Source: a plasmid
Reading direction: 5' to 3' (one strand)
Assembly (NCBI RefSeq): GCF_053078305.1
Contig: NZ_CP166875.1
Length of the DNA: 64,000 bases
A program made the position numbers and the translations under genes. Position 1 is the first letter of the stretch. Each line of letters starts with the position of its first letter. Below are positions 3,483 through 61,072 of the stretch, piece after piece. Under the pieces are notes generated by a model that saw only the letters and a program-made list of their open reading frames with translations, ran no database searches and was not told where the DNA came from.

Positions 3483-4614
3483 CTTCGGTACCTTCCCCTT
3501 CTCCCGTTTTACGGCAGAAGAGTTTCGCCATTTTTTTGCCTGGTGTGCCCGCCACCGCGTCAGTGATATTGATCTGACCGGCGGTTCACCGGTATCCGTC
3601 AGTCGCTTTGGACGGCGGGTTCGCTCATCCGTAAATCCCCTTCCGTCTTCCATCATGATGGCACTGAGTGATGAGCTGTTTGGGCGGGAGGTTCTTCCCC
3701 GGGTTCTGTCAGGTCATCCCGTGGATCGTACCATTCAGGTCAGCGGAGATGCCTCCGGCCGCTATGGCCTGCAGCGAGGTCAGCGTGTTCGCCTGCGCTG
3801 CCACCTGATACAGGGAACATCGGCAACAGAAGAAAAAGCCATTTCCGTCACCATGCGGGTGATCCCGTCAGATATTCCGGACATCCTCACTATGAATATT
3901 GAACCGGATCTGCTGGATGCCATGCTCAGAAAAACCGGCCTGGGCTTCATCTGCGGAGAAACCGGCTCCGGGAAATCCACACTGGCGGCGGCACTGTATC
4001 GCCACATTCTGAAAAATTTCCCCGATCGCAAAATAGTGACCTATGAAGATCCGGTGGAATACATTCTGGGCGGAGAGAATGACCTTCTGCCTCCCCATCA
4101 GGCCGAAATCGGGCGCGATGTGGAAAGTTTTGCTGCAGGACTTCGCTCTGCCGTTCGCCGTAATCCGGACATCATTGGTATCGGTGAAATCAGGGATTAT
4201 GAAACAGCAGATGCCGCAGTCCAGGCGGGTAATACCGGACACTTTTGTATCGGCACCATGCACACAAAATCACCCGGAGAAACCTTTGCCCGCCTGCTGG
4301 GATTGTTTCCTCCTGAAATCAGGGATTCGATGGCTGCAGCCACGCTTTCCCTCGTACAGTTCATTCTGGTGCAGGTACTGGTCAGAACAAATGACGGCGG
4401 CAGGCAGGCTGTCCGGGAATACATCGTCATAACTGACGAACTGCGCAATACGCTCTCCGGACAATCCCATGCAACATGGGGACATTACATTGACGAAATC
4501 ATTCGTCAGGAAAAACGGCGGATAAGGGATCAGGTTCTGACCATGTATCAGAACGACCGCATTGAGAAATCAGAAGCAGCGCTCTTCATCCCGGCCGGAG
4601 AGTTCCCCCGATGA
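3466..4614 (+). CDS. traJ: type IVB secretion ATPase, DotB/PilT/VirB11 family (TraJ-like)
   Basis: Walker A GETGSGKST; strong SD AAGGAGAG before ATG 3466; 382 aa; ATGA overlap with next gene. Confidence 0.8.
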   Translation: MISPDDFGTFPFSRFTAEEFRHFFAWCARHRVSDIDLTGGSPVSVSRFGRRVRSSVNPLPSSIMMALSDELFGREVLPRVLSGHPVDRTIQVSGDASGRYGLQRGQRVRLRCHLIQGTSATEEKAISVTMRVIPSDIPDILTMNIEPDLLDAMLRKTGLGFICGETGSGKSTLAAALYRHILKNFPDRKIVTYEDPVEYILGGENDLLPPHQAEIGRDVESFAAGLRSAVRRNPDIIGIGEIRDYETADAAVQAGNTGHFCIGTMHTKSPGETFARLLGLFPPEIRDSMAAATLSLVQFILVQVLVRTNDGGRQAVREYIVITDELRNTLSGQSHATWGHYIDEIIRQEKRRIRDQVLTMYQNDRIEKSEAALFIPAGEFPR

Positions 4615-22104: not shown

Positions 22105-24270
22105 GTGAAAATCATACCCAGAGCACTGAGTGCGGGTCTGGCGCTGGCTGCCGTACCTGCACAGGCATTCGTCACCTATCAGGACATTGTGAGCGCCGCC
22201 ACCAATCCGGATGACCTGTCGCGCCAGGCACTGGTCACCATTTTTGGCGACGTGGTCACAAATCCCCTGACAGCCAGCAGCAACACCATTATCGGCAACC
22301 TGTTCATGGTGTTTAACGCAATTATCGCCATTATGGGGATAGTCTGGTTCCTGTTTATTGGAATCCGCCATGTTGTCCGCACCGGCCACCAGGGCAATGT
22401 CTTTAACAACGGGCGGGACGTCGTCGGAATGCTCAGTATTGTGAGCGGTTTTATGATGATTGTGCCCACCGCTTCCGGCTGGAGCCTGGCACAACTGGTC
22501 ATGCTCTGGGGCGCATCCATCATGGGCATTGGTTCCGCCAATATCATGGTTCAGACGGCTGCAGAAAACATCGCTGAAGGCTATTCAATGACCGTACAGC
22601 CAGTTCATGTCTCCACCCGCACGGCAGCACGGGGAATACTGGAGATGGCGCTGTGCAAACACGCCATGAATGCAGGCCTCGATGACTTTAACCGTACTGC
22701 CCGTTCATCAACGCCCCCCATGAGCGAATCCTCACGGACAGAGAACGGCAGGTATACCATCACCGTTTCAAATGGCAGTGCCACCTGCGGTAGTGTGAGT
22801 CTCTCCGTAAAAGGGAATGGCAGCAACAACCAGTCCGCACTGGACTATTTTTTCAATCCCTTCATTGAAACGGAGTATCAGGGTGTCCTGACGGCACAAC
22901 GCTCCGCCATGGATACCATGCTCCGTGACCTGGACAGCGCAGCACAGGAATTTGTGTCAGCGTACCGGACCCGACGCGACACGGGTAACGGCAACCTGCC
23001 GGATATTGAAAGCCGTATTCAGAAGGCTGCCAACAGGTATGAAGAAACGGTGCAGAAGGCGTTGCCAACAGATAACGCAGAAACTGAGCGCAGGGAGCAG
23101 CTGAAATCCTACCTGACCACCTACGGCTGGGTTGCCCTGGGGGCCTGGTACCAGACCTTTGCCACTGCCAACCAGCGACTGGCAGAACTGGCCGACCGTG
23201 CCCCCACTGTGAGTGGAGTTTCATCGCAGGGCGAAGCAGGGGATACTGAATTCCTGAAGGAAGTAAAAGGAGCTTACCAGGCACAGTTGCAAAACTCACC
23301 ATATACACCTGCACTGGGAACAGCCACCTCCGCCAGTGAATACCAGGCATCTAATACACAGAATCCTCAATCAGCCCTGTTAGAGTTCATAGGGCCAGGG
23401 TTAACTCGATTTTCAAATAAAGTAGCAACCATACATTCAGGAACAGGAACAACGAGTCAGCAGGCAAATCCTCTGCTGAAAATGAAGGACATTGGTGATT
23501 ACACCATGGTCACAACCGAAACCATCTGGGCGGGTTATACCACTGTCAGGGTGCTTTCAACTGCCGGCAGCAACTCCGTTTTTGGCCGACTGGTCAATGC
23601 CGTCAGCGGCTTATCTGATGCCGCAAAGGCTTTTCTGGAAGCCTCCGCACCACCACTCTACTTCCTGCTGTTTTTGCTGTTCTGTGCCGGTTTTTCGTTG
23701 TCCATTTACCTGCCGTTTATCCCGTTTATCTTCTGGATGACCGGCATCGGCAACTGGATAGTCAGCGTACTGATTGGATGCGCCGCCGGCCCCCTGTGGG
23801 CCGCAACCCACCTGGGAACAAGTCAGGACAGAGGAAGTCGGGCCGCTTACGGTTACATCTACCTGATAGACAGCATGATCAGGCCTCTGTTGATGGTGTT
23901 CGGGTTCTTTTTTGCATCGGTCGCCATCGTGGCTGGCGGCACCATACTGAATGCTCTGTACGCTGCAGCACTAATGAATGTCCAGATAAATTCTGTGACG
24001 GGCGTGTTCAGCATGGCGGGATTTTTGATGATTTATGCCCGCGCCTGTACCACACTGGTTGCGGGCGTTTTTGCACTTCAGGCTTATCTGCCAGACCATG
24101 TGATTAATTTTCTGGGCGGACGTGATGGCGTTAATATGCTGGGGAATATGGTTTCTTCCGTCAAAGATATTATTGCCGGCGGAAACACCAATATACGCAG
24201 AACACCTGGCGTTCGTGAAGATAAACTGAAAAATATTAATAGAGATGATAAGGACGGAATAAAACAATAG
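22105..24270 (+). CDS. traY: large polytopic membrane protein, DotA-like (TraY-like)
   Basis: GTG start after GGAG; signal peptide; multiple TM clusters at both ends; 721 aa at the distal end of the tra operon. Confidence 0.6.
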   Translation: MKIIPRALSAGLALAAVPAQAFVTYQDIVSAATNPDDLSRQALVTIFGDVVTNPLTASSNTIIGNLFMVFNAIIAIMGIVWFLFIGIRHVVRTGHQGNVFNNGRDVVGMLSIVSGFMMIVPTASGWSLAQLVMLWGASIMGIGSANIMVQTAAENIAEGYSMTVQPVHVSTRTAARGILEMALCKHAMNAGLDDFNRTARSSTPPMSESSRTENGRYTITVSNGSATCGSVSLSVKGNGSNNQSALDYFFNPFIETEYQGVLTAQRSAMDTMLRDLDSAAQEFVSAYRTRRDTGNGNLPDIESRIQKAANRYEETVQKALPTDNAETERREQLKSYLTTYGWVALGAWYQTFATANQRLAELADRAPTVSGVSSQGEAGDTEFLKEVKGAYQAQLQNSPYTPALGTATSASEYQASNTQNPQSALLEFIGPGLTRFSNKVATIHSGTGTTSQQANPLLKMKDIGDYTMVTTETIWAGYTTVRVLSTAGSNSVFGRLVNAVSGLSDAAKAFLEASAPPLYFLLFLLFCAGFSLSIYLPFIPFIFWMTGIGNWIVSVLIGCAAGPLWAATHLGTSQDRGSRAAYGYIYLIDSMIRPLLMVFGFFFASVAIVAGGTILNALYAAALMNVQINSVTGVFSMAGFLMIYARACTTLVAGVFALQAYLPDHVINFLGGRDGVNMLGNMVSSVKDIIAGGNTNIRRTPGVREDKLKNINRDDKDGIKQ

Positions 24271-24340: not shown

Positions 24341-24991
24341 ATGAACAAAACGAAAAGCAGATATCCTTCCTGGTGGGCATATTACCACTTGGCCCGCAAC
24401 GCTTATTTCTTATTAGGAATACCGTGTTTACTTTTATACTCAGCCGCTTATACATCAGATTTATTAGATGATAATCTAAGACATTCAACAAGCCTTTTTA
24501 TTTTGGCATATGGATGTTATTTTCTTCTTTTTATTCCCCCACTCTGGCTATATCTGAGAACTAAGGCAAAGAAAAAGAAAATCCTACAGGTTGTTAAGAA
24601 GATAAAAGAAAGCAGTCCCTTTGCGCCGACCAGCGATTACGAGCAACTGTCATTCTCGAAGAGTTGCTATTTCGGGATCGACATTAAAAACGGCACCATG
24701 CTGTATGTGCGCATTTACCCAAACAATGTCATGGATGTGATTGGTCTGGATATTCACAACTTCACCCGAACAGTTGCTGAAGACGGCAAGCTGGAAATCC
24801 ACACCACCTATGTGAGTCTGCCGATGATCCCTCTTGAAATCTCCGGCATCTCAGCAAGGACGCTGGCCAACACCATGCACACCATGGCTGCACGTGGATA
24901 TGAGTACAAGGAACGTTTCCCACAGATGATCCGGTATCGGGTTAAAGAGTGGGAAAAAGTTGCCGGTGTTCCTGTTGCAGAAGTATTTTGA
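24341..24991 (+). CDS. inner-membrane protein, candidate entry-exclusion protein (ExcA-like by position)
   Basis: GGAGG before ATG; AT-rich; two N-terminal TM helices; immediately follows the traY-like gene. Confidence 0.4.
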   Translation: MNKTKSRYPSWWAYYHLARNAYFLLGIPCLLLYSAAYTSDLLDDNLRHSTSLFILAYGCYFLLFIPPLWLYLRTKAKKKKILQVVKKIKESSPFAPTSDYEQLSFSKSCYFGIDIKNGTMLYVRIYPNNVMDVIGLDIHNFTRTVAEDGKLEIHTTYVSLPMIPLEISGISARTLANTMHTMAARGYEYKERFPQMIRYRVKEWEKVAGVPVAEVF

Positions 24992-25055: not shown

Positions 25056-25264
25056 CAGGCAGAATGCCTGTCTGCCGTCTATCTCAGGACGCCGCATGGA
25101 GTCTCTATGTTTTCCCCACAAATTCTTAGCACTGTCTTGCCCACTGTAGACAAAATCAATACAATTCTGCATATCAGTTATCTATAAAAGATAACAATAT
25201 CATTATAAATAATTATCATATCCACACACTCAAGGCAGTACCTAGAAAACATAAAGATAAAATC

Positions 25265-26848
25265 ATGTCTACCCGCAGCAATTTTCCAGCACGACATGGT
25301 ACTCCATGGAATACTGAAGAGTTACAGCGTCTTCTCGTATCCATAGCGGAGGGCGTCTCGCTAAAAAAACTTACTCAAACACATCAACGATCGTCCGGGG
25401 GAATACGTGGAGCAATCAAACGCCTGCTTCCTTCTGAGTTTCTTGAGTTCAACGATATAAACACGGTGAATGATCTCAGCAATTACTTCAACAAGATTCC
25501 TCGCCAAGAACACAATAGTATCATCAATAATTTAATATCATTGAGCACTGCAAAAACAATTGCTCATGATAAAGTTGAAATACAAAAGAATAGTTTTAAA
25601 CAAAATACCCCACTCCCCCTCTGCCAACCCAATACAGATTTTAAAGATTATATAGCCGATGAACATGATGTCATTATGCTAATTCATTCTGCTATCGAAA
25701 GTTTATCTAATAAACGACATCAATATATTCTTCTAATGCGACTCGGCACAGATGATTCACCTCATTCTCTGGCAGATATTGCCGTCAAATTAGGAATTTC
25801 CCGTGAAAGGGTAAGACAACTTCAGGAACGAGCCCTTGGCTTACTAGCTGCTAAATCTCGCTATGAAGGGACACCTGGAGCTTGCCTTAAAGCCCTTATT
25901 AACTCAATAGGTAATTCACCATATGATATAGCAGTATGGATTTATCGTATTGTTCATCGGGATTTCGTTACATCCTCTGACTTAGCCGCCAAATTCATTA
26001 TTTTTACCGCAGGCATTCCTAAAGCAAGACGAGATGAAATAAAAAGTTCGCTCTCATTAATATCACAATTACAAAAGCAGAGGTTACGTGAACGAAGAGC
26101 AGAATTAGCACACGCTCGCGCTCAGGAAAGAGCCCGAATCAAGAAAGAAAGAGTTGAGTTCATATTCAGTAAATGGCTAGACAATACACATTGGCCAAAA
26201 TATATCGCACCTCCTCCCCCCGTAGAACAGCTATGTTCACAGAGAGCGGTTAATGATACTGACATATCTGGATTCTTTTACTCTCAAAAATTAGGTCGTA
26301 CAGTCCAGTACGAATCAGGGCTTGAGTTTAAAATAATGAATCTATTAGAATGTTGCGATCAGGTTCTTTTCTATCAAGAACAACCATTTTCTATTCCATA
26401 TTGTTTTAAAAACAAATCAAAAAAATACTATCCAGATTTACTCATTGCGACAGTTGATGGTCGGTGCCTACTTATGGAAGTGAAGCCAACAGACCGAATG
26501 ACCTTGAGTCTCACGAGAATAAAAAGTAATGCAGGTCGCAAATGGGCACATACTCGAGGATGGGGATGGTTGGTCATTAGTGATAGGTTCTCGTTACGTC
26601 AGCTGGAAGAACATGCCATCTCAACAAACACATGGAAACTTATAGAGGCTGAACTGAAAACATCAAGGATTTTAGCATGGCGTGAAATGATGGAGTTACG
26701 TACACGATACGAGATTCATCGTTTAGATCTTATTGCATATATCATTCAGTCTGGTGCTGAAGTGGATAACTTTTATCGAATTACCCCGAAAATATCTAAT
26801 AATACATCTAACCAGAGACAACTAAATGAGAGCGACTGTCATAATTGA
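25265..26848 (+). CDS. fusion protein: sigma-70 region-4-like HTH and C-terminal TnsA-like PD-(D/E)xK endonuclease domain
   Basis: Strongly AT-rich 527-aa ORF; HTH segment SLADIAVKLGISRERVRQLQERALGLL; C-terminal YESGLEF...YYPDLLIATVDGRCLLMEVK resembles the TnsA/restriction-endonuclease fold. Confidence 0.5.
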   Translation: MSTRSNFPARHGTPWNTEELQRLLVSIAEGVSLKKLTQTHQRSSGGIRGAIKRLLPSEFLEFNDINTVNDLSNYFNKIPRQEHNSIINNLISLSTAKTIAHDKVEIQKNSFKQNTPLPLCQPNTDFKDYIADEHDVIMLIHSAIESLSNKRHQYILLMRLGTDDSPHSLADIAVKLGISRERVRQLQERALGLLAAKSRYEGTPGACLKALINSIGNSPYDIAVWIYRIVHRDFVTSSDLAAKFIIFTAGIPKARRDEIKSSLSLISQLQKQRLRERRAELAHARAQERARIKKERVEFIFSKWLDNTHWPKYIAPPPPVEQLCSQRAVNDTDISGFFYSQKLGRTVQYESGLEFKIMNLLECCDQVLFYQEQPFSIPYCFKNKSKKYYPDLLIATVDGRCLLMEVKPTDRMTLSLTRIKSNAGRKWAHTRGWGWLVISDRFSLRQLEEHAISTNTWKLIEAELKTSRILAWREMMELRTRYEIHRLDLIAYIIQSGAEVDNFYRITPKISNNTSNQRQLNESDCHN

Positions 26849-27467
26849 TGACGCACAGGACGGAAAAAATAATAGCTGCCGGACAGCAGCAACCAGCAGT
26901 CGTCCGGTAAAAAAGACAAACAAGGCGCATTGAGGTCAGCCTTCGCAACAATCCGGCGGCAGATTCTCTACCGCCGTGTTGCCCGTTAACGTTTAACTTC
27001 GTAGGCTAACGTTGCCACAAGCACCGTATTTCCCTGCTCGATACGAAATCCGCAAAGCGAATCCCTCACCATCCAGACAAAACACAGTATCGTCACACAG
27101 ACGACGATTAACATCATTAAAAACGTTCGTTGTGGCATCGCAGCCCCTCCATTGCCTTTCGGCCGTCATCGGGCTACTATAATGTTGTTGAGGCATTACA
27201 GTGGGCCCTGGGTTGATTGATAAAAAAATCGCCTGGGGCTTTCTGCTACATGCCGTCCACAAAACGCTTTCGGCATACAGCCTCAAGCGCCCGCCGCTAT
27301 TCTAATCGTTTTCCAGTCCGCCACAATCCTTTTCATGCCACCACGTATTTTGTGTCAGGGACAGAAATAAAGCCGGAAAGTGACTACGTGTGCACACATC
27401 TGTTTTCCGGGCTGCAGGCATCGTGTTATTTTCTGAAATGCAAAATAATAAAAAACAAGGACACATC

Positions 27468-30045: not shown

Positions 30046-30385
30046 TTATTTGCTGATATGAAGAAAAAAACCATTTCAAAGAAAATAAATGGCAAAAATA
30101 CAGCATGGAAAAAAATTGCCATTTTTACCGCCGCGTTATTTTTAATATTTGCTGTCTGCTGGTCGTAATAAGCAGAATAACAGAAAGGTGTAAAAATGAA
30201 CCTGGTTGATGCATTTGTCACTAAAGTGATATCCGGACCGTATGAAGAATACGGAAAATGGTGGGTGGATGTAGAATATATTTCCTGGGGAGTTCCGGGT
30301 AAAAGCCGGCTCATGTTTGACTCACGGGAACAGGCACAGGAAGTGCAGGAAGGTTTTCGATTTTTAACCTGAGCATATTTTGTTA

Positions 30386-30415
30386 AAGGGCAGAAGGCGG
30401 TGACCCTCTGCCCTT
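30386..30415. terminator. hairpin after toxin copy 1 (bidirectional)
   Basis: Perfect 9-bp inverted repeat AAGGGCAGA ... TCTGCCCTT. Confidence 0.4.
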
Positions 30416-30434
30416 AAGTACGTTTCCGGGATTA

Positions 30435-30530
30435 TCAGTCAACCAGTTCCCGGATCAGTTCCAGGAGAGCTATCACTGCGTTAGCCACAGCAACAACCGC
30501 CCTGAGAACGATGATTAACAGGTTAATCAT
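30435..30530 (-). CDS. DinQ/TisB-like small hydrophobic toxin peptide, copy 1 (31 aa)
   Basis: Encodes MINLLIIVLRAVVAVANAVIALLELIRELVD; GGAG 8 nt before ATG; the IALLELIR core matches DinQ as I recall it. Confidence 0.4.
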   Translation of the reverse strand: MINLLIIVLRAVVAVANAVIALLELIRELVD

Positions 30531-30845
30531 CCGCTTCTCCATCAATGGAGAAAGAACACCGTGGTTTGCCCTTACATTGCCTGTCGCCACGTTTTCTATA
30601 GTGTCAGTTATAGACAGTTCTTCTCCGGCCAGAGCACCAAAACCAGCACCACCTGATGTTTTGGCCAGGACTTGCAACCTGTTCATCCCGGTGAACGATA
30701 TGCCGGAAAGAACGTGCCTCAAAGCTGACACACCGAGTATATACTTATACTGTGCTTGCAGAAATATTATTTCAGCCGTATTATTTCATAGTCAGTTATA
30801 GGCAGTTATCTTCCGGTCAGGGCTACCAACTTCGATCCGGAATCG

Positions 30846-30876: not shown

Positions 30877-31077
30877 TGCGTCTGTACCTCCTCCCCGGAC
30901 AGCAGTTCTCTCACTCCCGTTGAATATTTCCTGTTGAATTTTACGAAAATACGGCAAATGGGAGATATCGAATATATTTCCTTGGGTGTAGTCGGTAAAA
31001 ACCAGCTCATGTTTGACTCACAGAAACAGGCTCTGGAAGTACAGAAAGTAATCTGTCCGTAGATTATTAAAGGGCAG

Positions 31078-31107
31078 AGGGCGGTGACCCTCTGCCCTTA
31101 AGTACGT
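31078..31107. terminator. hairpin after toxin copy 2
   Basis: Same 9-bp inverted repeat as at 30386. Confidence 0.4.
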
Positions 31108-31118
31108 TTCCGGGATTA

Positions 31119-31214
31119 TCAGTCAACCAGTTCCCGGATCAGTTCCAGGAGAGCTATCACTGCGTTAGCCACAGCAACAACCGCCCTGAGAACGATGATT
31201 AACAGGTTAATCAT
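31119..31214 (-). CDS. DinQ/TisB-like small hydrophobic toxin peptide, copy 2
   Basis: Identical 31-aa peptide and GGAG site to copy 1. Confidence 0.4.
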   Translation of the reverse strand: MINLLIIVLRAVVAVANAVIALLELIRELVD

Positions 31215-31575
31215 CCGTTTCTCCATCAATGGAGGAAATCACTGTTGTTTACTCTTACATTGCCTGTCACAACAGCTCTTTCATTGTTAGCTGAAAAGAG
31301 ACTTCCTCCGGCCAGAGCACCAGACGCAGCACCACCTGTTTGTCCGGCCAGGTCTTTGAATAGCACAGATCCATAGTCCCGATGGATTGATGCGAAGGTA
31401 AGTCTCCAGACAAGGCTAACTTGCTGATTATACTTGTTTCAGGCGATATCGCTACTCCCGGAACAATAGACTGTAACGAACAGATTGCGATCAGGTGAAT
31501 ATAACGATATTCTGGTAACGTTAGTTGAAAAGAGACTTCCCCCGGGCCAGAGCCACCCACTCTCCCTGGGATCGC

Positions 31576-34188: not shown

Positions 34189-36469
34189 TCCTGACCTCAT
34201 ACACCGCACGGCCTGGGGAAACCCGCTGTGGAATGCACTGCATAACCTGAACATCATTGGTCTGTGTCTGGCCGGCAGTATCATTACGGCCCTGATATGG
34301 CCACTGGCCCTTCCTGTCTGTCTGCTGTTCACCCTGGTCACCTCCGTGATATTCACGCTGCAACGCTGGCGATGCCCCCTGCGTATGCCCATGACGCTCA
34401 GCCTTGATGACCCCTCCCAGGACAGAAAGGTCAGGCGAAGCCTCTTCAGCTTCTGGCCCACCCTGTTTCAGTATGAAGCAGATGAAACATCCCCCGCACG
34501 GGGGATTTTTTATGTCGGTTACCGCCGTATCAATGATATCGGTCGTGAGCTCTGGCTGAGCATGGATGACCTCACCCGGCATGTCATGTTTTTTGCCACC
34601 ACCGGTGGCGGTAAAACAGAAACCACCTTTGCCTGGCTGCTCAACCCGCTCTGCTGGGGAAGAGGCTTTACCTTTGTTGACGGAAAGGCACAGAACGATA
34701 CCACGAGGACAATCTGGTATCTCTCCCGACGTTTTGGCAGGGAGGATGATATCGAGGTCATCAACTTCATGAACGGCGGAAAATCCCGCAGCGAAATCAT
34801 TCAGAGTGGCGATAAATCCCGCCCACAGTCAAACACCTGGAACCCGTTCGCATTCAGCACCGAAGCCTTCACCGCCGAAACCATGCAGTCCATGCTGCCC
34901 CAGAACGTTCAGGGCGGTGAATGGCAGTCACGGGCGATAGCCATGAACAAGGCACTGGTCTTTGGCACAAAATTCTGGTGCGTCCGGGAAGGTAAAACCA
35001 TGTCCCTGCAGATGTTACGGGAACATATGACGCTGGAAGGGATGGCAAAACTCTATTGCCGTGGCCTTGATGACCAGTGGCCGGAAGAAGCCATCGCACC
35101 ACTGCGAAACTACCTGCAGGATGTCCCGGGATTCGATATGTCACTGGTGAGAACGCCGTCAGCCTGGACTGAGGAGCCCCGTAAACAGCATGCTTATCTC
35201 TCCGGTCAGTTCTCGGAAACGTTCACAACCTTTGCCGAAACCTTCGGGGACGTCTTTGCGGCAGATGCCGGCGACATCGATATTCGCGACAGTATTCACA
35301 GCGACCGCATTCTGATTGTGATGATCCCTGCACTGGACACATCGGCCCATACCACGTCGGCACTCGGTCGTATGTTCGTCACCCAGCAGAGCATGATCCT
35401 CGCCCGTGACCTGGGCTACCGCCTGGAAGGCACAGATGCACAGACCCTGGAAGTCAAAAAATACAAAGGCAGCTTCCCCTATATCTGTATCCTTGACGAA
35501 GTCGGTGCCTACTACACAGACCGCATTGCTGTGGAGGCCACCCAGGTACGTTCACTGGAGTTTTCCCTGATAATGATGGCGCAGGATCAGGAGCGAATTG
35601 AAGGGCAGACCTCCGCCACCAACACCGCCACACTGATGCAGAACGCCGGCACCAAATTCGCCGGACGCATTGTCAGTGACGACAAAACGGCAAGAACGGT
35701 GAAAAATGCCGCCGGTGAAGAGGCACGGGCCAGAATGGGCAGCCTGCAGCGCCACGATGGTGTGATGGGTGAGTCCTGGGTGGACGGTAACCAGATCACC
35801 ATCCAGATGGAAAGCAAAATCGACGTGCAGGATTTGATCAGACTGAATGCCGGTGAGTTCTTTACCGTTTTCCAGGGGGATGTGGTGCCGTCAGCCTCTG
35901 TGTATATTCCGGACAGCGAGAAAAGTTGCGACAGTGATCCGGTGGTCATCAACCGCTATATTTCCGTTGAAGCCCCCCGGCTGGAGCGTCTCCGCCGTCT
36001 CGTCCCCAGGACAGTGCAGCGCAGGCTCCCCACACCGGAGCATGTCAGCAGCATCATCGGTGTACTGACAGCAAAACCATCCCGTAAACGTCGTAAAAAC
36101 CGTACAGAGCCTTACCGTATCATTGATACATTCCAGCGCCGGTTGGCAACAGCGCAGACATCACTGGATCTGCTTCCGCAATATGATACAGATATCGAAT
36201 CCCGGGCAAACGAACTGTGGAAAAAGGCTGTGCACACTATCAATAACACAACCTGGGAAGAACGCCGGGTATGTTATATCACACTGAATCGTCCGGAAGA
36301 GGAACACTCCGGTCCTGAAGATATACCTTCAGTAAAGGCGATTCTGAATACCCTGCTCCCCCTGGAGATACTGTTACCGGTCGCTGAAAATAATAAATCG
36401 CAGACAATAAATAATGATCATCCCCAGAAATCATGTGGAGCACAACCAACAACTGACGAAAAATACTGA
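34169..36469 (+). CDS. trbC: type IV coupling protein, DotL/IcmO (VirD4-like) family (TrbC-like)
   Basis: N-terminal TM helices; Walker A FFATTGGGKTET; 766 aa; SD GAGGAG. Confidence 0.7.
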   Translation: MSQHHVNPDLIHRTAWGNPLWNALHNLNIIGLCLAGSIITALIWPLALPVCLLFTLVTSVIFTLQRWRCPLRMPMTLSLDDPSQDRKVRRSLFSFWPTLFQYEADETSPARGIFYVGYRRINDIGRELWLSMDDLTRHVMFFATTGGGKTETTFAWLLNPLCWGRGFTFVDGKAQNDTTRTIWYLSRRFGREDDIEVINFMNGGKSRSEIIQSGDKSRPQSNTWNPFAFSTEAFTAETMQSMLPQNVQGGEWQSRAIAMNKALVFGTKFWCVREGKTMSLQMLREHMTLEGMAKLYCRGLDDQWPEEAIAPLRNYLQDVPGFDMSLVRTPSAWTEEPRKQHAYLSGQFSETFTTFAETFGDVFAADAGDIDIRDSIHSDRILIVMIPALDTSAHTTSALGRMFVTQQSMILARDLGYRLEGTDAQTLEVKKYKGSFPYICILDEVGAYYTDRIAVEATQVRSLEFSLIMMAQDQERIEGQTSATNTATLMQNAGTKFAGRIVSDDKTARTVKNAAGEEARARMGSLQRHDGVMGESWVDGNQITIQMESKIDVQDLIRLNAGEFFTVFQGDVVPSASVYIPDSEKSCDSDPVVINRYISVEAPRLERLRRLVPRTVQRRLPTPEHVSSIIGVLTAKPSRKRRKNRTEPYRIIDTFQRRLATAQTSLDLLPQYDTDIESRANELWKKAVHTINNTTWEERRVCYITLNRPEEEHSGPEDIPSVKAILNTLLPLEILLPVAENNKSQTINNDHPQKSCGAQPTTDEKY

Positions 36470-36558
36470 AGGAATACAAATATTTTCTGGTGACCATATC
36501 TGTCAATCCGACTGTAAAACCCTGTTCACTAAGTCCGGGGTTTTACGGCACACTGGAT

Positions 36559-36580
36559 AAGGGCCGCAGACACGGCCCTT
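36559..36580. terminator. bidirectional hairpin between convergent trbC and nikB
   Basis: AAGGGCCG-cagaca-CGGCCCTT. Confidence 0.45.
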
Positions 36581-36689
36581 AATTCAGAGTTAACCGGGTA
36601 TAAACTCAATTCAGTGACTACTCCCGCCCTTATTGACGAAGGTTCCTGCCGTTTTGGGGCTGAATCTTTGCACCATCACTTATCCGGGC

Positions 36690-39410
36690 TTACATTCCAG
36701 GTGATGGTGGCTCCCATGTTTTCTCCTGCCGTAACGTATAATTATCATCATGGCTCTCCGATAAACGGGTCTGCTGTCTGATATATTCCCGGTAATACTG
36801 CTCACTGCGTTGACGGTGCAAATCCACGTCCGGACGAGTAATGGTGAAGTGTCCGTTTCCGGTTATTCCCGCTGCATTGTGCCAGGCCACCATTTCTGCA
36901 AACACATCATTAAACTGCTGGTATGAACCTTCCGGCTCAAAACCAAGCTTTCCGTTGCGGCTGAACAGAACTGGCGCAATTAAATCAAGCTTCTCTGCCA
37001 GTTCATTTCGGTCCGTGTGATGGTAGAACACAACCCGATCTCCGTAATCCGTACAGACATTTTTTCCTGTCCGCGTATCCCTGAAATGAACACTTCCATT
37101 TTTCTGAAGACGAGCTTCAAGTTTTGCAACATTATTAAAAAGTGGCGTTCCTCCGGGTTCGCAGAGTACGACACAACGATCAGCATTAGTTGTGCGTCTT
37201 TTATCCTTATTACGCGAGCGACGATCACGATAATCCCAGCCACGTAACTGCGATACTGCAGCCCTGTCTCCCTGAGCCGCCTGTTGTTCCACCCACTGCC
37301 GGTAGGACAAAGGATACCACTTACCCTCCGCAATCAGTGACAACCGCTCTTCCTTCACACTCTCCTTCAGCCTGATCAGCGCCTGCATACGCTGCACTTC
37401 CGCAATATGGTAATGCAGCTTACGCAATTGTGGATCCCGGAACTGCACACGGATATACGCCTTGCGCCGACGGCAGGCAGCATGAATTTCCCGTAACCGT
37501 TCTCCGTAACGTAAGTCGGGTTTACGCCAGTGCTCCTTCCATGCAAGATAACGCGCACGCAAATCTTCCCGCGCAGCTGCACGGGCTTCACGGCGCTCAC
37601 GACGAATCTCAGGATCGCGCCGGAAGCCTGGTTCCACTTCATCACTGGCAGCAAGTTCCGGATTGTAACGACATTCAGGCTTCACCCGTTCGAAAATATC
37701 TGCAGCCGCAATTTCAAATGGCCCGGCCTGAGGCTCGGCACGGGATAACGTCAAATCCGGGTGGATACTGCTGGCCTTCACCGGTGTCAGCTCATGATTA
37801 AACGCATCCACAATCACAAGACCATGATGCTGTTTCTGCAGCATAAGCCCTTTACGCGCAAACATCTCATGACATGCCTGCCAGCTGAAATCCCCGCCAG
37901 CTATCATCTCTTCAATCTGGCTCCTGCACTGAATAAGAGCGTATCCCCACAGACTTTCCTTATCGGAAAACAGTTCACGCTTTATAGCCCCCTGCGGACC
38001 TGTGCCCATCCTCATGCGATACCATTCGTAATCACTGACAGGCTGAGAGCCAATACTGTGTCCCCGGAATCGTTCTCCGGGAACGACCTGAGTAAAAATA
38101 TCCTTCGGTACAGGCTGCCATCCACCATCCAGATCCTGCATATAATCCAGCGTCATTAACGGCCACACACTGTCTGCACGTACTGGTGTCTGTTGTTTAT
38201 CAAATCCATCATGCAGTACCAGATGCCCGTGCTGAATCCCCATCCATAATCCCGCCTCTGCCAGAGTACGGTGTACAGCCAGGCAGCTTTTCAGTTCACC
38301 ATTGCGCGCCATTGCCGGTAAGCGTTCGGCAAAATGACGGCAGGCGTACTGTTTCAGACTCTCCGTTTCTGCCACTTTTTCCGGCCGGATATCAACGTTT
38401 ATGGCTTCCGGATCATAACGACCGGGTGTCCCCACCTGACTGAAAATATCTGTCGGTACAGGCTGATATTCCCCCAGTTTCCGCCCCAGTTTTTCAGCCG
38501 TCCATGACGGTCCGAACGAACTGAGTGCAACACCTTCCCGCGCTCTGTCCCAGCCATCCTTCACCACCAGTTCCCCTTCCTGCATCGTGATATACAGACC
38601 ATCGCTGGCCAGCCGTTTATGCAAAGATAACCAGTCCTGTGCAGGCTCTTCACGCAGCCCGGCAATCGACATCTGAGCAATATATTCCCTGAACGTCTGC
38701 TTTTTCCCGCGTCGCCAGGCATTACGGCGCTCACGTACCAGCGCTGTTTTGCGCACAATACGGTTGCCGGGTGCATGCACAAAGCAGCCATTATCCGGCG
38801 CGAATCCGTGCTTAAGTTCAAGTTCACGACATGCACGGCTGAGTTTTTCCTGGCTCCACGGAAGGCAATTGATATAGCCGGTTTCAGGGTGGACACGATT
38901 CACTGCAACATGTACATGCAGGTTATCCGTGTCTGTATGAACGGCTGCCACATACTGATGTTTTGACAGCTCAAGGGATTTCAGGGTGTGACGCACACAG
39001 TCAAAAAGCTGCTCAGAACGCGGACTTTCGTGCGCAGGCCAGGAGAGAATATAGTGAAAAACAGGATCTGTATCATCTTTGGAAAAATGAGCAAGGTCTG
39101 CTGCTTTCTGCATTTCTTCAGCCGCAGATTCAAGAGACAAACAGTTATGAAAGCAGGTCACACCATAGAAATTCACCCACTGACTGCCGTCTTTCATCAC
39201 ATCAATCAGGGAAACAAATTTTTCATTACGCAGACGTGTTGCATAATCAACAAGACGTCTGAAGCGATTCCGGTGCGGAACCTCACCTTTCACTTCCGTG
39301 TCTGGTCTGAGTTCATCTTCCGGCACATCATCCCGCACTGAGGTGTACGCAATCAGGTCTTCAAAAGAAGACTTTCCGTCGCGTCTTTTTTTCGGAATGA
39401 TGGCATTCAT
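36690..39410 (-). CDS. nikB: conjugative relaxase (NikB-like)
   Basis: 906 aa; N-terminal relaxase domain with histidine motif HVHVAVNRVH; adjacent to nikA-like gene and oriT-like site. Confidence 0.8.
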   Translation of the reverse strand: MNAIIPKKRRDGKSSFEDLIAYTSVRDDVPEDELRPDTEVKGEVPHRNRFRRLVDYATRLRNEKFVSLIDVMKDGSQWVNFYGVTCFHNCLSLESAAEEMQKAADLAHFSKDDTDPVFHYILSWPAHESPRSEQLFDCVRHTLKSLELSKHQYVAAVHTDTDNLHVHVAVNRVHPETGYINCLPWSQEKLSRACRELELKHGFAPDNGCFVHAPGNRIVRKTALVRERRNAWRRGKKQTFREYIAQMSIAGLREEPAQDWLSLHKRLASDGLYITMQEGELVVKDGWDRAREGVALSSFGPSWTAEKLGRKLGEYQPVPTDIFSQVGTPGRYDPEAINVDIRPEKVAETESLKQYACRHFAERLPAMARNGELKSCLAVHRTLAEAGLWMGIQHGHLVLHDGFDKQQTPVRADSVWPLMTLDYMQDLDGGWQPVPKDIFTQVVPGERFRGHSIGSQPVSDYEWYRMRMGTGPQGAIKRELFSDKESLWGYALIQCRSQIEEMIAGGDFSWQACHEMFARKGLMLQKQHHGLVIVDAFNHELTPVKASSIHPDLTLSRAEPQAGPFEIAAADIFERVKPECRYNPELAASDEVEPGFRRDPEIRRERREARAAAREDLRARYLAWKEHWRKPDLRYGERLREIHAACRRRKAYIRVQFRDPQLRKLHYHIAEVQRMQALIRLKESVKEERLSLIAEGKWYPLSYRQWVEQQAAQGDRAAVSQLRGWDYRDRRSRNKDKRRTTNADRCVVLCEPGGTPLFNNVAKLEARLQKNGSVHFRDTRTGKNVCTDYGDRVVFYHHTDRNELAEKLDLIAPVLFSRNGKLGFEPEGSYQQFNDVFAEMVAWHNAAGITGNGHFTITRPDVDLHRQRSEQYYREYIRQQTRLSESHDDNYTLRQEKTWEPPSPGM

Positions 39411-54183: not shown

Positions 54184-54635
54184 TAATACCCCGACAAGAT
54201 TAAATTCTGGTTAACGATATCATTATACAGCGAATAATATAATTATGGTTCACGTATTATTATCCGTGACTCTTTCCTGGTAACTCCCGCATAATAACTT
54301 CACTTTTCCAGTATTCCAGAAGATGATGTTTTTTCCTCGATAATAAAAATGTGCCAATATGGAAATAAGAAATCGGATTTTTTATCAGCATACGCAAATT
54401 TTCAGATAACAATGAATACAGATGTATTTTATATACACAGATAAAACCGCGCAACAGACATAAATATGACAGTAGCATGAAAAAGCAGAGAGAGACAGGG
54501 TGATACAGAAAAGTAACTATTTTTTTAGCTATAGTATTATTGGTTTTACCTATTTTCGTGATTGTGTTTCTGTATATTGGGGGTTCGCGCCCATTTCCTC
54601 TAAAAGTCTCACCTTGCTTAGGTAATTAATTGAAT

Positions 54636-55217
54636 TTATTTATAAAACGTTGCAATTTTAGCATCATTTTTTATTGTTCTTTTTAACCTGAAGTACGTCG
54701 ATCGAGAGATACCTGTTTTTTCTGTCACACTGCCCAGAGATTCTCCCTGTGATATAAGCTCCAACGCTGTAGGCGTTCGTGGATGCTTCTTCCTGCCAAA
54801 TTTTACGCCTGCGGCAAGTGCCGCTATTCTTCCGTCGTTTGTCCGCTCCAGAATACGCTCACGTTCCGCTTCAGCTACAGCAGCAAGGATTTGGATAACC
54901 ATTTTGCCCATTGTCCCTTCTGTACTGAGACCGTTCTCCAGGAACCGGATGGCGATCCCCTTTTTGTAACAGCTATCAACCACACGAATCATGTCAGCAG
55001 TGTTACGCCCCAGTCGGTCCATTTTTGTACAGATGATTACGTCGTCTTTCTCTGCACGGGCCAACAACCGCTGTAGTCCTTCCCGTTCATCAGTTGCGCC
55101 AGTCATCATATCCGTAAAAATACGATCTTCCCGTACCCCGGCATTTTTTAGCTCCGAGATTTGATGTGTTAGCTTCTGATGACTGGTTGATACCCGTGCA
55201 TACCCCAATAACGCCAT
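54636..55217 (-). CDS. tnpR: serine recombinase (resolvase TnpR)
   Basis: N-terminal LLGYARVSTSHQ catalytic motif; C-terminal HTH. Confidence 0.8.
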   Translation of the reverse strand: MALLGYARVSTSHQKLTHQISELKNAGVREDRIFTDMMTGATDEREGLQRLLARAEKDDVIICTKMDRLGRNTADMIRVVDSCYKKGIAIRFLENGLSTEGTMGKMVIQILAAVAEAERERILERTNDGRIAALAAGVKFGRKKHPRTPTALELISQGESLGSVTEKTGISRSTYFRLKRTIKNDAKIATFYK

Positions 55218-55373
55218 TTTTAGTCTCACTTATCGTTTTTGACACTGCATGGTATCATAATGTACAAAATACGATTTTTGAAACCTGCTTTTATGCTGTT
55301 TTAGACAGGTATCAGATATCTTAATATTTGATACTAGCCATATTTAACAAATATTTAGCATTTTGGTAAATGT
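55218..55373. promoter_or_regulatory. res site region between divergent tnpR and tnpA
   Basis: AT-rich 156-bp divergent intergenic region; subsites not resolved. Confidence 0.4.
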
Positions 55374-58300
55374 ATGCAGAAGTACAAGAAAAGAATTAGT
55401 ATATTAACAAAAAGTGAAATAAATGAATTATATCAAGTCCCCTCTTTTAATCCTGTTGAAAGGGATGAGTTTTTTTCGCTGGATATCAGCCTTAAAAGAG
55501 AAATTGATAAAATAATAAATATAGAAAGCAGGGTGTATCTGATATTAATAACAGGGTATTTCAGATATAAACCTGTGATTCCTGAATTTACATTAAAAGA
55601 CGTAAAAAGGGATGTGAAATATATTATCCAGACATATTATAAAAACGAAAGTACTAATCTCAATTTAAACATACCTAAAAGTACAAAGTACCGCCTTGTT
55701 AAACGAATGCTTTCTACTCTAGGATTTGAACAACTCACCCCATCTATAAAAAATGAGTTAAGTGAACGTCTGAATGATGTTGCTACTATATGTATGGAAC
55801 CAAAATATATTTTTGATGAATTACTTGCTTTTTTAGGACAGCGGCGTATAGCTCTTCCTGGATACAGTACTGTCCAGAACCTCGTTTCAGATGCTTTAAA
55901 CTTTGAAAGGAAAAGGACAATTAATATTTTGTCAAAGAGAATTTATCCTGCCACTGCACAAAAGATTACATCCATCATCCATGATGATGGAATATTAAAT
56001 TCCATCAGGGGATATAATTATAGCACGAGAGACTTCTCAGCATCAGAAATAGAAAATGAATTAAGAACTCACAATGTGATAAGTAGTATTTACTATGAAA
56101 TAAAAGATATAATTAATTCATTAGGTATATCCCAGGGAAACATGGAGTACTATGCAACTATCGTAAAACACAGTACAACATTCAGACTTAAGCGACACCC
56201 TAAATGGCAAGGAATACTTTATTTGTGCTGCTACTTGTACTTCAGATACAGAGAGATAAATGATAAAATAATCACAGCCTTCAGATATTTAGTAAAAAAA
56301 CATAAAGACGCTTCAGTTTTGTTTGCAAAAGCTCGGGCAACAGAGGAAATAGATCTAATAAATAAAAAGCTTAAGTTTGCGAGTAAAATATTTAACTTCT
56401 TCGTTGATAGTAACATTGAAGACAGCATCCCTTTTGGATATGTTCGTGAAAAGGTTTTTTCACTTATATCGAAAGATGATATGCATCTTGTGAGTGAATT
56501 TTTTGACAAAAATAAAATCGATGTAATTGAATATCAATGGCAGTATATTGACAGCCATCACCTTAAGATCGCCAATTCAATCCGAAAGCTTTTTCTGGCT
56601 ATAGATATAGTATATGACAACGAGAAGTCTGTTATTGGCCAGCAAATTACTGCTGCCAAGGATGATCTCAGAGGAAAAGGAAAGCTGGATGCTAAGGATC
56701 TGAGGGTAATTCATCCATCCGAGAAAAATTACATTGTAAAAGAAGGAGAAATTAACACTCAACGATTCGAATTTCATATGTACAGCAGGGTATCTAACCA
56801 TCTGGAAAACGGTGTCTTTTATGCTGCGGAGAGTGAACAAAACAAGAGACTGGAAGATGATCTCATAGAACGAAGTTACTGGCATAAGAATAAATCGATT
56901 TTGATAGAGAAAACAGGCCTTGAACGACTTATCACACCAATAACGCAGACTCTTAATGAGCTGGAGAATACCTTTAGCGATAAACTGGCTCGTATAACCA
57001 TTGGAATAAACTCAGATGCTAATGAGTTTGTGAAAAAACAACCACACTCCAACAGATTACAGTGGAGTCTGGCCAGTAAAAAATGGAAGACCAGCATCGA
57101 TAATCCGATTTACAATCAGATAAAAAATATCGGAATAGTTGACGTAATGAAGTATGTAAACAATGAGACGAATTTTTTGTCTGTGTTTAATGCCATATCA
57201 TCCAGGAAAAATAATCTTGAAGCTGACTATAATGACCTTCTTGCCTGTATATTTGGTAATGGCGCAAATTATGGTGTTCACAGAATGGCATCTGCATCAG
57301 ACCGTAGTATTGGAATACTACGTGATGTGAATGACAAATTCATTCGTCCAGAAACAACAGGAATGGCCAACACAGTAATATCTGATGCAATTGCAAATCT
57401 TTCTGTATATAAATACTGGACGATAAATGAAGATTCTCCATTTGGAAGTGTTGATGGGCAGAAGCACACTTGCAGAATAAATACATTTAAAGCCCGTTAT
57501 TCTGCCAAGTATTTCAGAAAGGGGAAAGGGGTTTCTGCGATGACACTGGTATCTAATCATGTGCCATTATCAACTGTGGTAATTTCTCCAAATGAATATG
57601 AAGGTCATTTTGCATTTGACTTGTTATATAACAACACCAGTGAAATACAACCAAAGTCATTAGCGACTGACAATCATGGTATAAACAACGTTAATTTTGC
57701 GATTCTTGACATTTTTGGCTATCAGTTTTCACCACGTTATGCAAAATTCAAGAAAATATTTAATGAATTATTTGATGTTATACTGGAGAGTGATAAACTC
57801 ATTATAAAACTTAAAAAACAATTTAACTTTAAGCTCATTGAACATGAATGGGAAAACATCCAACATATTATTTGTTCTTTAAGCAGAAAAACAACCATTC
57901 AAAGTACGGTTGTTAAGAAGTTATCTAATACAAAGCGTAGCAACAAGACATTAGCAGCACTTCGGGAGTATGACCGAGTTATAAAATGCATATATGTCCT
58001 GGATTATGCTGACAATAAAACCTTAAGGCAATTTGTGCAACAAGCACTGAACAGAGGTGAAGCTTATCATCAACTAAGAAGAGCAATAGCATCAGTAAAT
58101 GGAAATCAATTTCGCGGTGGTAATGACTACCAAATAGATCAATGGAACGACTGTGCGAGGTTAATAGCTAATTGTGTAATCTATTATAATTCAGCAATAT
58201 TATCCAGGCTGGTCGAGAAATTTGAAAAAGAAAATAATAAAAAAGCGATAGATGTTCTGGCTAACTTATCCCCAGTAGCATGGAGACACATTCTCCTTGG

Positions 58301-58412
58301 AGGGAATTATTCTTTTGAAGATCAAGTTGCGATCACAAATTTGGACAGTCTTTTGGAGGGAGTAGACCCACTAAGTGATATCGGAGATATTGAGTCCGAA
58401 TATGACGGTTAA
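55374..58412 (+). CDS. tnpA: Tn3-family transposase TnpA (1012 aa)
   Basis: Size, N-terminal region and position inside the IR-bounded element. Confidence 0.8.
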   Translation: MQKYKKRISILTKSEINELYQVPSFNPVERDEFFSLDISLKREIDKIINIESRVYLILITGYFRYKPVIPEFTLKDVKRDVKYIIQTYYKNESTNLNLNIPKSTKYRLVKRMLSTLGFEQLTPSIKNELSERLNDVATICMEPKYIFDELLAFLGQRRIALPGYSTVQNLVSDALNFERKRTINILSKRIYPATAQKITSIIHDDGILNSIRGYNYSTRDFSASEIENELRTHNVISSIYYEIKDIINSLGISQGNMEYYATIVKHSTTFRLKRHPKWQGILYLCCYLYFRYREINDKIITAFRYLVKKHKDASVLFAKARATEEIDLINKKLKFASKIFNFFVDSNIEDSIPFGYVREKVFSLISKDDMHLVSEFFDKNKIDVIEYQWQYIDSHHLKIANSIRKLFLAIDIVYDNEKSVIGQQITAAKDDLRGKGKLDAKDLRVIHPSEKNYIVKEGEINTQRFEFHMYSRVSNHLENGVFYAAESEQNKRLEDDLIERSYWHKNKSILIEKTGLERLITPITQTLNELENTFSDKLARITIGINSDANEFVKKQPHSNRLQWSLASKKWKTSIDNPIYNQIKNIGIVDVMKYVNNETNFLSVFNAISSRKNNLEADYNDLLACIFGNGANYGVHRMASASDRSIGILRDVNDKFIRPETTGMANTVISDAIANLSVYKYWTINEDSPFGSVDGQKHTCRINTFKARYSAKYFRKGKGVSAMTLVSNHVPLSTVVISPNEYEGHFAFDLLYNNTSEIQPKSLATDNHGINNVNFAILDIFGYQFSPRYAKFKKIFNELFDVILESDKLIIKLKKQFNFKLIEHEWENIQHIICSLSRKTTIQSTVVKKLSNTKRSNKTLAALREYDRVIKCIYVLDYADNKTLRQFVQQALNRGEAYHQLRRAIASVNGNQFRGGNDYQIDQWNDCARLIANCVIYYNSAILSRLVEKFEKENNKKAIDVLANLSPVAWRHILLGGNYSFEDQVAITNLDSLLEGVDPLSDIGDIESEYDG

Positions 58413-58478
58413 CAACATGATAAATAATGGTTTTTATGCTAAGAGTGAGACTTTTGGAGGAAATGGGCGCAGAACCCC

Positions 58479-58702
58479 TGTATCTGCCGTTCGGTTTTTG
58501 CACGAAGTTTTTCTGAGCTTTTACCGAACTGCATACGTTGCAGTTTCGCAACCAGCGCCTTCAGCCGGTTGATTTCGGAAGCATAAGCCGCCACCCGCTG
58601 TGAGAGCAGGCGGTTGTATTCAGCCATCTGGCGGATGGTGTCCTGTTGCGTCTGCAACAGTGCCCGCAGGCGGGCGTTCTCATGAGCAAGTGAGGTGTCC
58701 AT
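58479..58702 (-). pseudogene. IS66 tnpC 5' fragment
   Basis: Leucine-zipper-like N-terminus (ENARLRALLQ...) ending inside the Tn3-family IR. Confidence 0.5.
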
Positions 58703-58721
58703 ATCCTCACTTTACAACGGG

Positions 58722-59069
58722 TTATATGCGGATTCCAGCGCGTTCCGTTCGTTTCGGGTGCTTCCAGTTGATACCTTCAAGAAGCATGGATAACTGAGCC
58801 GGAGTAAGGTGCACCTTGCCGTCACGGGTGACTGGCCAGACGAAGCGGCCCCGCTCCAGGCGTTTGGTGAAGAGGCACAGTCCGTCACTGTCAGCCCACA
58901 ACACTTTTATCTGGTCACCCCGGCGTCCGCGGAAGATGAACAGGTGTCCGGAGAACGGGTCATCCTTCAGGACGTTCTGAACTTTTGATGCCAGGCCGTT
59001 AAAGCCATTTCGCATATCGGTGATACCTGCAACCAGCCAGATACGCGAACCTGCAGGGAGAGATATCAT
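58722..59069 (-). CDS. IS66-family accessory protein TnpB (orf2)
   Basis: 115 aa with RIWLVAGITDMRNGFNGL motif. Confidence 0.65.
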   Translation of the reverse strand: MISLPAGSRIWLVAGITDMRNGFNGLASKVQNVLKDDPFSGHLFIFRGRRGDQIKVLWADSDGLCLFTKRLERGRFVWPVTRDGKVHLTPAQLSMLLEGINWKHPKRTERAGIRI

Positions 59070-59746: not shown

Positions 59747-59798
59747 TATTTTTGTAGAGCCGGAGGAAACAGACCAGACGGTTTAAATGAGCCGGTTA

Positions 59799-59964
59799 CA
59801 AACAAATTCGCTTCATAAATTTCATAGTGCAGACCACATCCCCAATGAGCCTGCTTTTCCAGCCTGCTGATCACCACATCAGCCCGGATAACATCAAAGG
59901 GATTGCGGGAATGAATATTACGAATAAAGCCATCGGTACGTGCTGCTGACATATTTCTGCCCAT
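59799..59964 (-). pseudogene. 3'-truncated ORF interrupted by the IS66-family element
   Basis: SD AGAGGTG before ATG 59964; reading frame runs into the IS terminus; directly downstream of hairpin element A3. Confidence 0.3.
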
Positions 59965-60049
59965 CTTTAATACACCTCTGTTTTTTGCCCCCATCATCTG
60001 TTGAGTTTCGGGAGCCGCGGTTTTGACGTTTTGCGGGGACCTGCCTTTT

Positions 60050-61015: not shown

Positions 61016-61072
61016 GGCCTTCTTCTCCTTGCGCAAAGCGCGGTAAGAGGCTATCCTGATGTTGTCAGACAT
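60857..61072 (-). CDS. mok-like overlapping leader frame
   Basis: In-frame upstream extension ([19 protein letters not shown]-) of hok, as in hok/mok/sok loci. Confidence 0.4.

Follow-up and report, generated by a model that had tools for sequence, protein, structure and literature searches.

A plasmid gene of a widespread family joins a sigma-70 region 4-like module to a TnsA-like nuclease domain: a candidate single-gene defence endonuclease

The stretch of DNA analysed here (the window) comprises 64,000 nucleotides of a conjugative plasmid of the IncK/IncB/O type (NZ_CP166875.1). At positions 25265–26848 on the plus strand it contains an uninterrupted open reading frame for a protein of 527 amino acids, whose RefSeq relative is WP_000004560.1. 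The gene has a GC fraction of 0.395, whereas the whole window averages 0.522 and neighbouring traY (22105–24270) has 0.528, and it lies just downstream of excA (24341–24991). It is the sole content of an AT-rich block of 39.3% GC that extends from 25080 to 26917, as delimited by blastn against the related plasmid L013, by the junction sequences and by GC content. Downstream of the block the hok-like gene pndA, a toxin gene of the pnd/hok type, occupies 26986–27138 on the minus strand, and beyond it follow small ORFs, an HTH gene, a thermonuclease gene, two dqlB toxins and trbABC. An earlier reading made from the sequence only had described a 527-residue ORF in a low-GC island between the exclusion gene and trbA; the ORF call and the composition bear this out, with pndA as the nearer downstream neighbour. 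The region ahead of the gene includes a promoter-like element, TTGCCC-17-TACAAT (25137–25165, plus strand), which is a consensus match only, six such sites being present in the region where 5.7 are expected. A perfect inverted repeat read from the sequence, TTATCT-N5-AGATAA (25178–25194), lies 71 bases upstream of the start codon and is possibly an operator.

The window is collinear with the IncK2/Z plasmid pDW54_2 (NZ_CP038793.1), with 95.7–99.9% identity over positions 1–54580 and 87% over 61434–64000; the collinearity is broken by a gap inside the leading region, by another of 0.4 kb (36382–36769) and by a 6.9-kb block (54581–61433). The last of these carries a Tn3-family resolvase and transposase and lies approximately 28 kb from the gene. 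Another IncK2/Z plasmid, L013, lacks positions 25080–26917 by blastn and has 157 unrelated bases in their place, in which a TacA/DUF1778-like antitoxin ORF begins, plus a small ORF annotated as HEAT repeat. The boundary with the gene-less plasmid is that of a replacement and not of an insertion with target duplication. No flanking inverted repeats longer than 13 nt bracket 25080–26917, and no Tn7-like or other transposon was found around the gene, a setting that would have counted against the sequence-only reading.

Intact copies of the gene predominate, and a small number of plasmids carry broken ones. In CP088678.1 a deletion of 1366 bp inside the gene has occurred at a CATGG microhomology. 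[quoted passage not shown] Together with the absence of the gene from L013, these damaged copies indicate that it is exchangeable and dispensable cargo, while most carriers retain it intact. FinQ was considered as an alternative occupant of the same slot and rejected, since in other I-complex plasmids finQ sits between a hok-like gene and trbA, that is, elsewhere in the wider excA–trbA accessory region.

The gene is pCT_066 of the IncK plasmid pCT: published lambda-Red primers for ‘sigma factor pCT_066’ match the window without a mismatch at 25348–25387 (plus strand) and 26493–26532 (minus strand). It was described in 2011 (Cottell et al.) and again in 2014 (PMC4083329) as a ‘putative sigma-70 factor’ or ‘unusual sigma factor’. 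In the later study pCT_066 was replaced by aph, and the resulting plasmid was unchanged in its stability, its conjugation to E. coli and Salmonella, and its influence on host growth and biofilm formation (Cottell et al. 2014, PMC4083329). The competitive index of 1.00 was likewise unchanged, in a set of assays that included neither phage nor incoming plasmids (PMC4083329). RefSeq names WP_000004560.1 a ‘TnsA endonuclease N-terminal domain-containing protein’, and some of its records instead use ‘sigma factor-like helix–turn–helix DNA-binding protein’. Literature searches on the gene, the accession, the domains and the combination of TnsA with defence returned no functional paper, the pCT papers alone treating the gene, and no expression data for it were found in the supplementary text of a pCT transcriptome paper. 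The domain fusion has thus already been annotated and the gene already named; as far as could be found, neither its association with defence islands nor the invariance of its sigma-type reading helix has been reported.

The architecture of the protein was delineated by profile searches and by an AlphaFold2 model built from 24 relatives (mean pLDDT 88.4). Pfam identifies two domains, Sigma70_r4 at residues 149–192 (E 2.2e-8) and Tn7_TnsA-like_N at residues 365–439 (E 1.7e-11), and beyond these no named family in PADLOC, PHROGs or NCBIfam accounts for the whole protein. The chain begins with a three-helix HTH-like module (residues 10–57; 25292–25435, plus strand) with modelled helices at 17–28, 33–40 and 44–54 and a conserved G-x-P-W...EE...L...G...L...H-x-R-T motif; it is present in 46 of 140 relatives, or about one third. 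The possibility that this module is a duplicate of either region 4 or the winged helix was rejected (hhalign probability below 2%). In the model two further helices (residues 64–102) and a disordered linker (103–130) lead to the sigma-70 region 4 module, which comprises both 4.1 and 4.2, spans residues 133–197 (25661–25855, plus strand) and includes the recognition helix SRERVRQ. It is followed by a small helical domain of unassigned type (residues 204–248; 25874–26008, plus strand) with helices at 204–215, 219–233 and 238–248, for which pLDDT exceeds 94 in each block of ten residues. A single long charged helix of 54 residues (253–306; 26021–26182, plus strand), with 16 lysines or arginines and 8 aspartates or glutamates, varies in length from 37 to 54 residues among relatives, and judging from the model it may serve as a spacer or a dimerisation element. 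The remainder is made up of a TnsA-like PD-ExK catalytic domain (residues 320–440; 26222–26584, plus strand) that holds E354, P390-D391 and E405-x-K407, and a C-terminal winged-helix domain (residues 444–507; 26594–26785, plus strand) that is the counterpart of the TnsA C-terminal domain.

The nuclease half resembles TnsA, the endonuclease subunit of the Tn7 TnsAB transposase (PDB 1f1z, 1t0f), in the order of its domains, a restriction-endonuclease-like fold and then a winged helix, and in its aligned catalytic residues E, D, Q or E, and K. A profile of the C-terminal part places S351-x-x-E354 onto the SDLE motif (S60-D-L-E63) of Tn7 TnsA (1f1z_A) and D391 onto the aspartate of TDF, and the same alignment sets E405-V-K407 opposite the glutamine and lysine of the TnsA QVK motif. 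The TnsA counterparts are the residues that we take to be E63, D114, Q130 and K132, of which E63 alone was counted exactly. In the predicted structure E354 lies in the helix 352–363, P390-D391 opens the strand 392–396 and E405-V-K407 closes the strand 401–406; the model therefore reproduces the layout of the PD-(D/E)xK superfamily, in which the first helix carries an acidic residue and PD and (D/E)xK follow on consecutive strands. The TnsA-like E...PD...(D/E)xK signature that had been proposed from the sequence is thereby upheld by its alignment to the catalytic positions of 1f1z_A.

The DNA-reading half resembles the primary and group 2–3 sigma-70 factors RpoD, RpoS and RpoH, with which it shares the recognition helix S/T-R-E-R-I/V-R-Q and the R-L/F-G motif of region 4.1. 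Residues 545–605 of E. coli sigma70 align to residues 141–201, so that R180-E-R-V-R-Q185 corresponds to R584-E-R-I-R-Q589 of sigma70, and matches of the HTH to solved region 4 domains are as good as E 1e-4. In sigma70 the R584–Q589 helix reads the −35 hexamer, with E585, R586, R588 and Q589 touching −35 DNA.

Conservation was counted over 140 representatives of no more than 50% mutual identity. The catalytic residues are kept in 138 (E354), 137 (D391), 133 (E405, with aspartate in a further five) and 129 (K407) of the 140, and the residues of the sigma-type helix in 134 (E181), 134 (R182), 133 (R184) and 139 (Q185). Both halves of the sequence-only reading thus stand, the likeness of the HTH to sigma region 4 through its Pfam match and its conserved recognition helix, and the nuclease through catalytic residues each of which is retained in at least 129 of 140 homologues. 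Judged by these counts, strong constraint acts both on the catalytic site and on the helix of sigma type. That the recognition helix stays the same in a family of such diversity suggests a single universal target, which may be a hexamer of the −35 type or some universal region 4 partner, in place of the diversified specificities of restriction enzymes.

The gene had been described as an ‘orphan’, a term that its distribution and its literature as pCT_066 refute. At 95% identity or more it is found in 315 PLSDB plasmids from E. coli, Shigella sonnei, Klebsiella and Salmonella, and it is present in 255 of 5426 complete E. coli genomes (4.7%), where every copy is plasmid-borne. When 1.84 billion cluster representatives were searched with a profile, 473 proteins were recovered at E ≤1e-30, so that at 50% identity the family numbers at least 473 clusters. 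Its members span Proteobacteria, Actinobacteria and other phyla and share a common core of about 370 residues, consisting of region 4, the helical domain, the long helix and the TnsA-like module. A profile of the nuclease part found just two close relatives among 2.9 million viral contigs, and tblastn against phage genomes found one related gene, gp94 of a Mycobacterium prophage; the remaining viral and phage matches are short nuclease-only proteins labelled ‘head completion’ in phage records. This scarcity indicates that it is not a typical phage gene. The carriers of the family are plasmids, integrase islands and occasional prophage-like elements, in which the gene is accessory cargo.

Twelve independent neighbourhoods of relatives, picked by the length of the contig and without regard to content, were inspected, and in all twelve the gene is solitary. 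Recognised defence systems lie within 10 kb of it in seven of the twelve, a small sample that comes without a matched control. In a Pectobacterium integrase island GajA and GajB of the Gabija system are directly upstream (E 9e-269 and 2e-230) and McrBC is downstream; a Providencia plasmid carries the Borvo gene BovA directly upstream (E 2e-128); and in Salmonella the neighbours are brxA, brxB and brxC of a BREX system and a methylase. A Xanthomonas locus combines an LmuB-like (Lamassu-like) ATPase with SIR2 and GmrSD, a metagenomic integrase/Prim-Pol island includes a type IIG restriction–modification enzyme and HEPN/NTase genes, AbiEi/AbiEii adjoin the gene on another metagenomic contig, and a further integrase island encodes OLD-TOPRIM, TIR, PIN, HNH and STAND NTPase proteins. 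The five neighbourhoods without a recognised defence gene are an integrase island beside smpB, a locus near hipA and rpoD, a mycobacterial element with toxin genes and two ordinary metabolic chromosomal regions. A scan of genome contigs with the full-length alignment yielded no usable neighbourhood statistics: of the 80 loci retained, only 3 belonged to relatives, the sigma-helix pattern having drawn in ordinary sigma factors. A methyltransferase, the partner expected in a type II restriction–modification system, is adjacent to the gene neither in the window nor beside most relatives. PADLOC-DB v2.0.0 has no model for the protein and returns only a marginal match to SspB (E 5.6e-4), which covers 81 residues from the sigma region 4 HTH into the helical domain.

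Enzymes that combine a binding and a cleavage module in one gene are familiar from solitary PD-(D/E)xK defence, type IIS and type IV nucleases such as FokI, Shedu SduA and Mrr, which occur in defence islands. The present protein differs from these in matching none of the PADLOC v2 models, in having no adjacent methyltransferase and in using a copy of sigma region 4 as its binding module; we know of no description of such a copy in a restriction or defence nuclease. A comparable domain of the region 4 type is found at the C-terminus of MzaA of the MZA system (NCBIfam NF041931), whose profile positions 610–708 are matched by residues 103–201 of the present protein (E 1.7e-6). MzaA, however, is a 726-position protein of a multi-gene system and lacks a TnsA-like nuclease, so that the HTH alone is in common.

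On the best explanation, the gene encodes a solitary DNA endonuclease of several domains, whose family is widespread and uncharacterised; the protein is not a sigma factor, nor is it a subunit of a transposase. For its role, we give about an even chance to a stand-alone, one-gene endonuclease of innate immunity, carried as plasmid cargo and directed against phage or other invading DNA, a proposal whose basis is genomic association. A solitary gene on mobile carriers, set among defence genes at more than half of the sites sampled and without a phenotype in maintenance or transfer, points to a conditional function, most plausibly defence. The lack of any effect of the knockout on stability, conjugation, growth, biofilm formation and competition fits a function that is needed only under attack. 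Among the roles put forward in the sequence-only reading, single-gene defence accords with the seven defence neighbourhoods, whereas exclusion and site-specific nicking sit poorly with a pCT_066::aph plasmid whose conjugation, stability and competition are unaltered.

By homology and conservation, the complete acidic and lysine site of the C-terminal TnsA-like module (E354, D391, E405 and K407) is predicted to catalyse Mg2+-dependent DNA hydrolysis. The conserved −35-contact residues suggest that the region 4 module would bind either duplex DNA that resembles TTGACA or a universal region 4 partner. The charged helix of 37–54 residues, if the model is correct, might act as a spacer or dimerisation rod and position the cut away from the docking site in the manner of a type IIS enzyme. 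Self DNA might be spared through low expression, through activation only upon infection, or through a dependence on DNA modification or on DNA structure. Several observations count against a defensive role. Toxicity would be expected of a solitary nuclease that reads a hexamer as common as the −35 element, and no immunity mechanism is evident. Moreover, 5 of the 12 neighbourhoods hold no recognised defence gene, PADLOC has no model for the protein, and in a few plasmids the copy is frameshifted or deleted, which marks the gene as dispensable.

The label under which pCT_066 was first annotated, an alternative sigma factor of RNA polymerase, draws on the region 4 homology to RpoH, RpoS and RpoD and is extremely unlikely to be correct. 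Pfam and NCBIfam detect neither region 2, the element for core binding and −10 reading, nor region 3; the scores of 24.6 bits against a cut-off of 42.9 for TIGR02937 and of 31 against 241 for RpoH fall far short, and sigma matches of the AlphaFold2 model are confined to the region 4 module. Unlike RpoD, RpoS and RpoH, the protein lacks regions 1.2, 2 and 3, which makes sigma activity impossible, and has a nuclease fused to it. The alignment of the C-terminal ~210 residues to the whole of TnsA, both catalytic and winged-helix domains, could be taken to mean that the protein is part of a heteromeric transposase of the Tn7 type, or what remains of one. This is very improbable, given that no TnsB- or TnsC-like gene is found either in the window or among the 12 neighbourhoods (nor is one annotated in the collinear plasmid, in agreement with the earlier statement that such partners are missing), that terminal inverted repeats are lacking around the gene, and that NCBIfam NF033179 (TnsA_like_Actin) scores 46.8 bits against a cut-off of 110. 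The catalytic domain also has weak profile matches to phage endonuclease I (E 0.005) and Hjc (E 0.07–0.2), as a structure-specific nuclease of processing or recombination (Hjc-like or T7 endonuclease I-like) would have, but TnsA and not a resolvase is by far the best match. The presence of finQ within the wider accessory region of other I-complex plasmids would suit a factor for competition between plasmids, for example by fertility inhibition of rivals, yet conjugation and competition were unchanged in the pCT knockout, in assays without rival plasmids. We consider it unlikely that the gene has either of these two functions.

A selfish solitary nuclease, comparable to free-standing homing endonucleases or addiction elements and maintained by its own spread or retention and not through protection of the host, would explain why an AT-rich cassette that consists of one gene and its own upstream region occurs at many unrelated sites and is present or absent at the excA–pnd slot among related plasmids. 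The gene-less site, however, consists of unrelated sequence and offers no clean target, the gene has no intron, intein or phage setting, and its loss by knockout or deletion brings neither plasmid instability nor host killing; we regard this explanation as improbable. The region 4 module might alternatively mimic its sigma counterpart, binding the beta-flap of RNA polymerase or baiting the phage proteins that seize region 4 (AsiA-like or gp67-like) and thereby switching on or positioning the nuclease, as a guard or decoy would. In favour of such mimicry are the close likeness to 4.1 and 4.2 of primary sigma factors, including R159, G161, T168, L169 and the recognition helix, the near-invariance of the module in a family of no more than 50% identity, which suggests one universal partner, and structural neighbours, among them complexes of sigma region 4 with gp67 of phage G1 and with WhiB proteins. 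Conservation is nonetheless highest at the residues that contact −35 DNA in sigma factors, so that plain DNA binding is the simpler account and mimicry is unlikely.

A bolder form of the defence hypothesis, to which we assign a low probability, is that of a one-protein immune sensor-effector in which the copy of housekeeping sigma region 4 would either read consensus −35 promoter hexamers on incoming DNA or act as a lure for region 4-hijacking proteins of phages, with the rigid charged helix relaying the signal to the TnsA-derived nuclease. The latter would then cut at a set distance or upon activation. Were this correct, promoter recognition or the appropriation of sigma would be tied directly to the destruction of DNA, and the TnsA fold would have a second career outside transposons. 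The pairing of a sigma region 4 reader with a TnsA-type cutter would in itself be unusual. Should the protein prove to be an immune nuclease, a ‘sigma factor’ label of 15 years’ standing would be corrected and a compact single-gene family added to the known defences. The carriers are globally spread resistance plasmids of the IncK, IncB/O and I-complex groups such as pCT, which would then confer resistance to phages or plasmids besides antibiotic resistance, with a bearing on plasmid success and on phage therapy. Testing is cheap, because the knockout plasmid and its E. coli host already exist.

The interval between excA and the hok-like pndA is occupied differently in a related IncK2/Z plasmid that lacks the 527-aa gene (NZ_CP141237.1), where positions 4295-4451 correspond to 25080-26917 of the window. 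An antitoxin ORF resembling TacA/DUF1778 (MPSATQTARLEARISTELHAMLKRAAEIQ...) begins in this short segment, and the same slot also holds a second, remnant copy of the 3' end of excA; the excA-pnd gap is therefore a cargo slot prone to recombination.

The gene itself has been reduced in another IncK2/Z plasmid (CP088678.1), in which 1366 bp corresponding to window 25310-26675 have been lost from within the reading frame, so that no more than 45 bases at the start of the gene and 173 at its end survive. The deletion occurred between two CATGG microhomologies. A finer form of variation is located within the coding sequence at window 26141-26152, where a tetranucleotide tract, (AAGA)3, reads (AAGA)4 in seven of 291 plasmids, including pCERC6 and LR213460.1. 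The longer allele introduces a +4 frameshift that splits the protein between its HTH and nuclease halves, and the tract could represent a hotspot for slippage or serve to switch the gene on and off. Upstream of the gene, 71 bases before the start codon, an AT-rich region contains the perfect inverted repeat TTATCT-ATAAA-AGATAA (25178-25194), which may serve as an operator for the 527-aa gene.

Elsewhere in the window, the block 54581-61433 is missing from the otherwise collinear plasmid pDW54_2. It encodes a resolvase of the Tn3 family on the minus strand (54636-55229), a Tn3-type transposase of 1012 aa on the plus strand (55374-58412) and IS-like ORFs. Between nuc and trbA there are two copies of dqlB, a DinQ-like type I toxin gene, in segments 30244-30673 and 30945-31356, which are approximately 82% alike in a comparison across the plasmid pair.

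Relatives of the gene reside in diverse neighbourhoods. In Pectobacterium (locus L002, 12150-17274) three co-directional unannotated genes of 734, 643 and 327 aa are placed between the homologue and McrBC within a defence island; the last of them has a weak ZorA/MotA-like match (E 8e-6), and the set may constitute an undescribed defence system. On a gammaproteobacterial chromosome (L009, 7700-10000), 2.3 kb without a called gene lie directly upstream of the homologue, flanked on the other side by a hipA-like kinase gene and with rpoD close by. A further relative, with 30% identity over 80% of the query, is gene 94 of the Mycobacterium phage prophiT36-1 (L101, 6944-8548), which belongs to the accessory region of a prophage-like element in M. 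abscessus; two tyrosine integrases and an AAA ATPase are encoded nearby.
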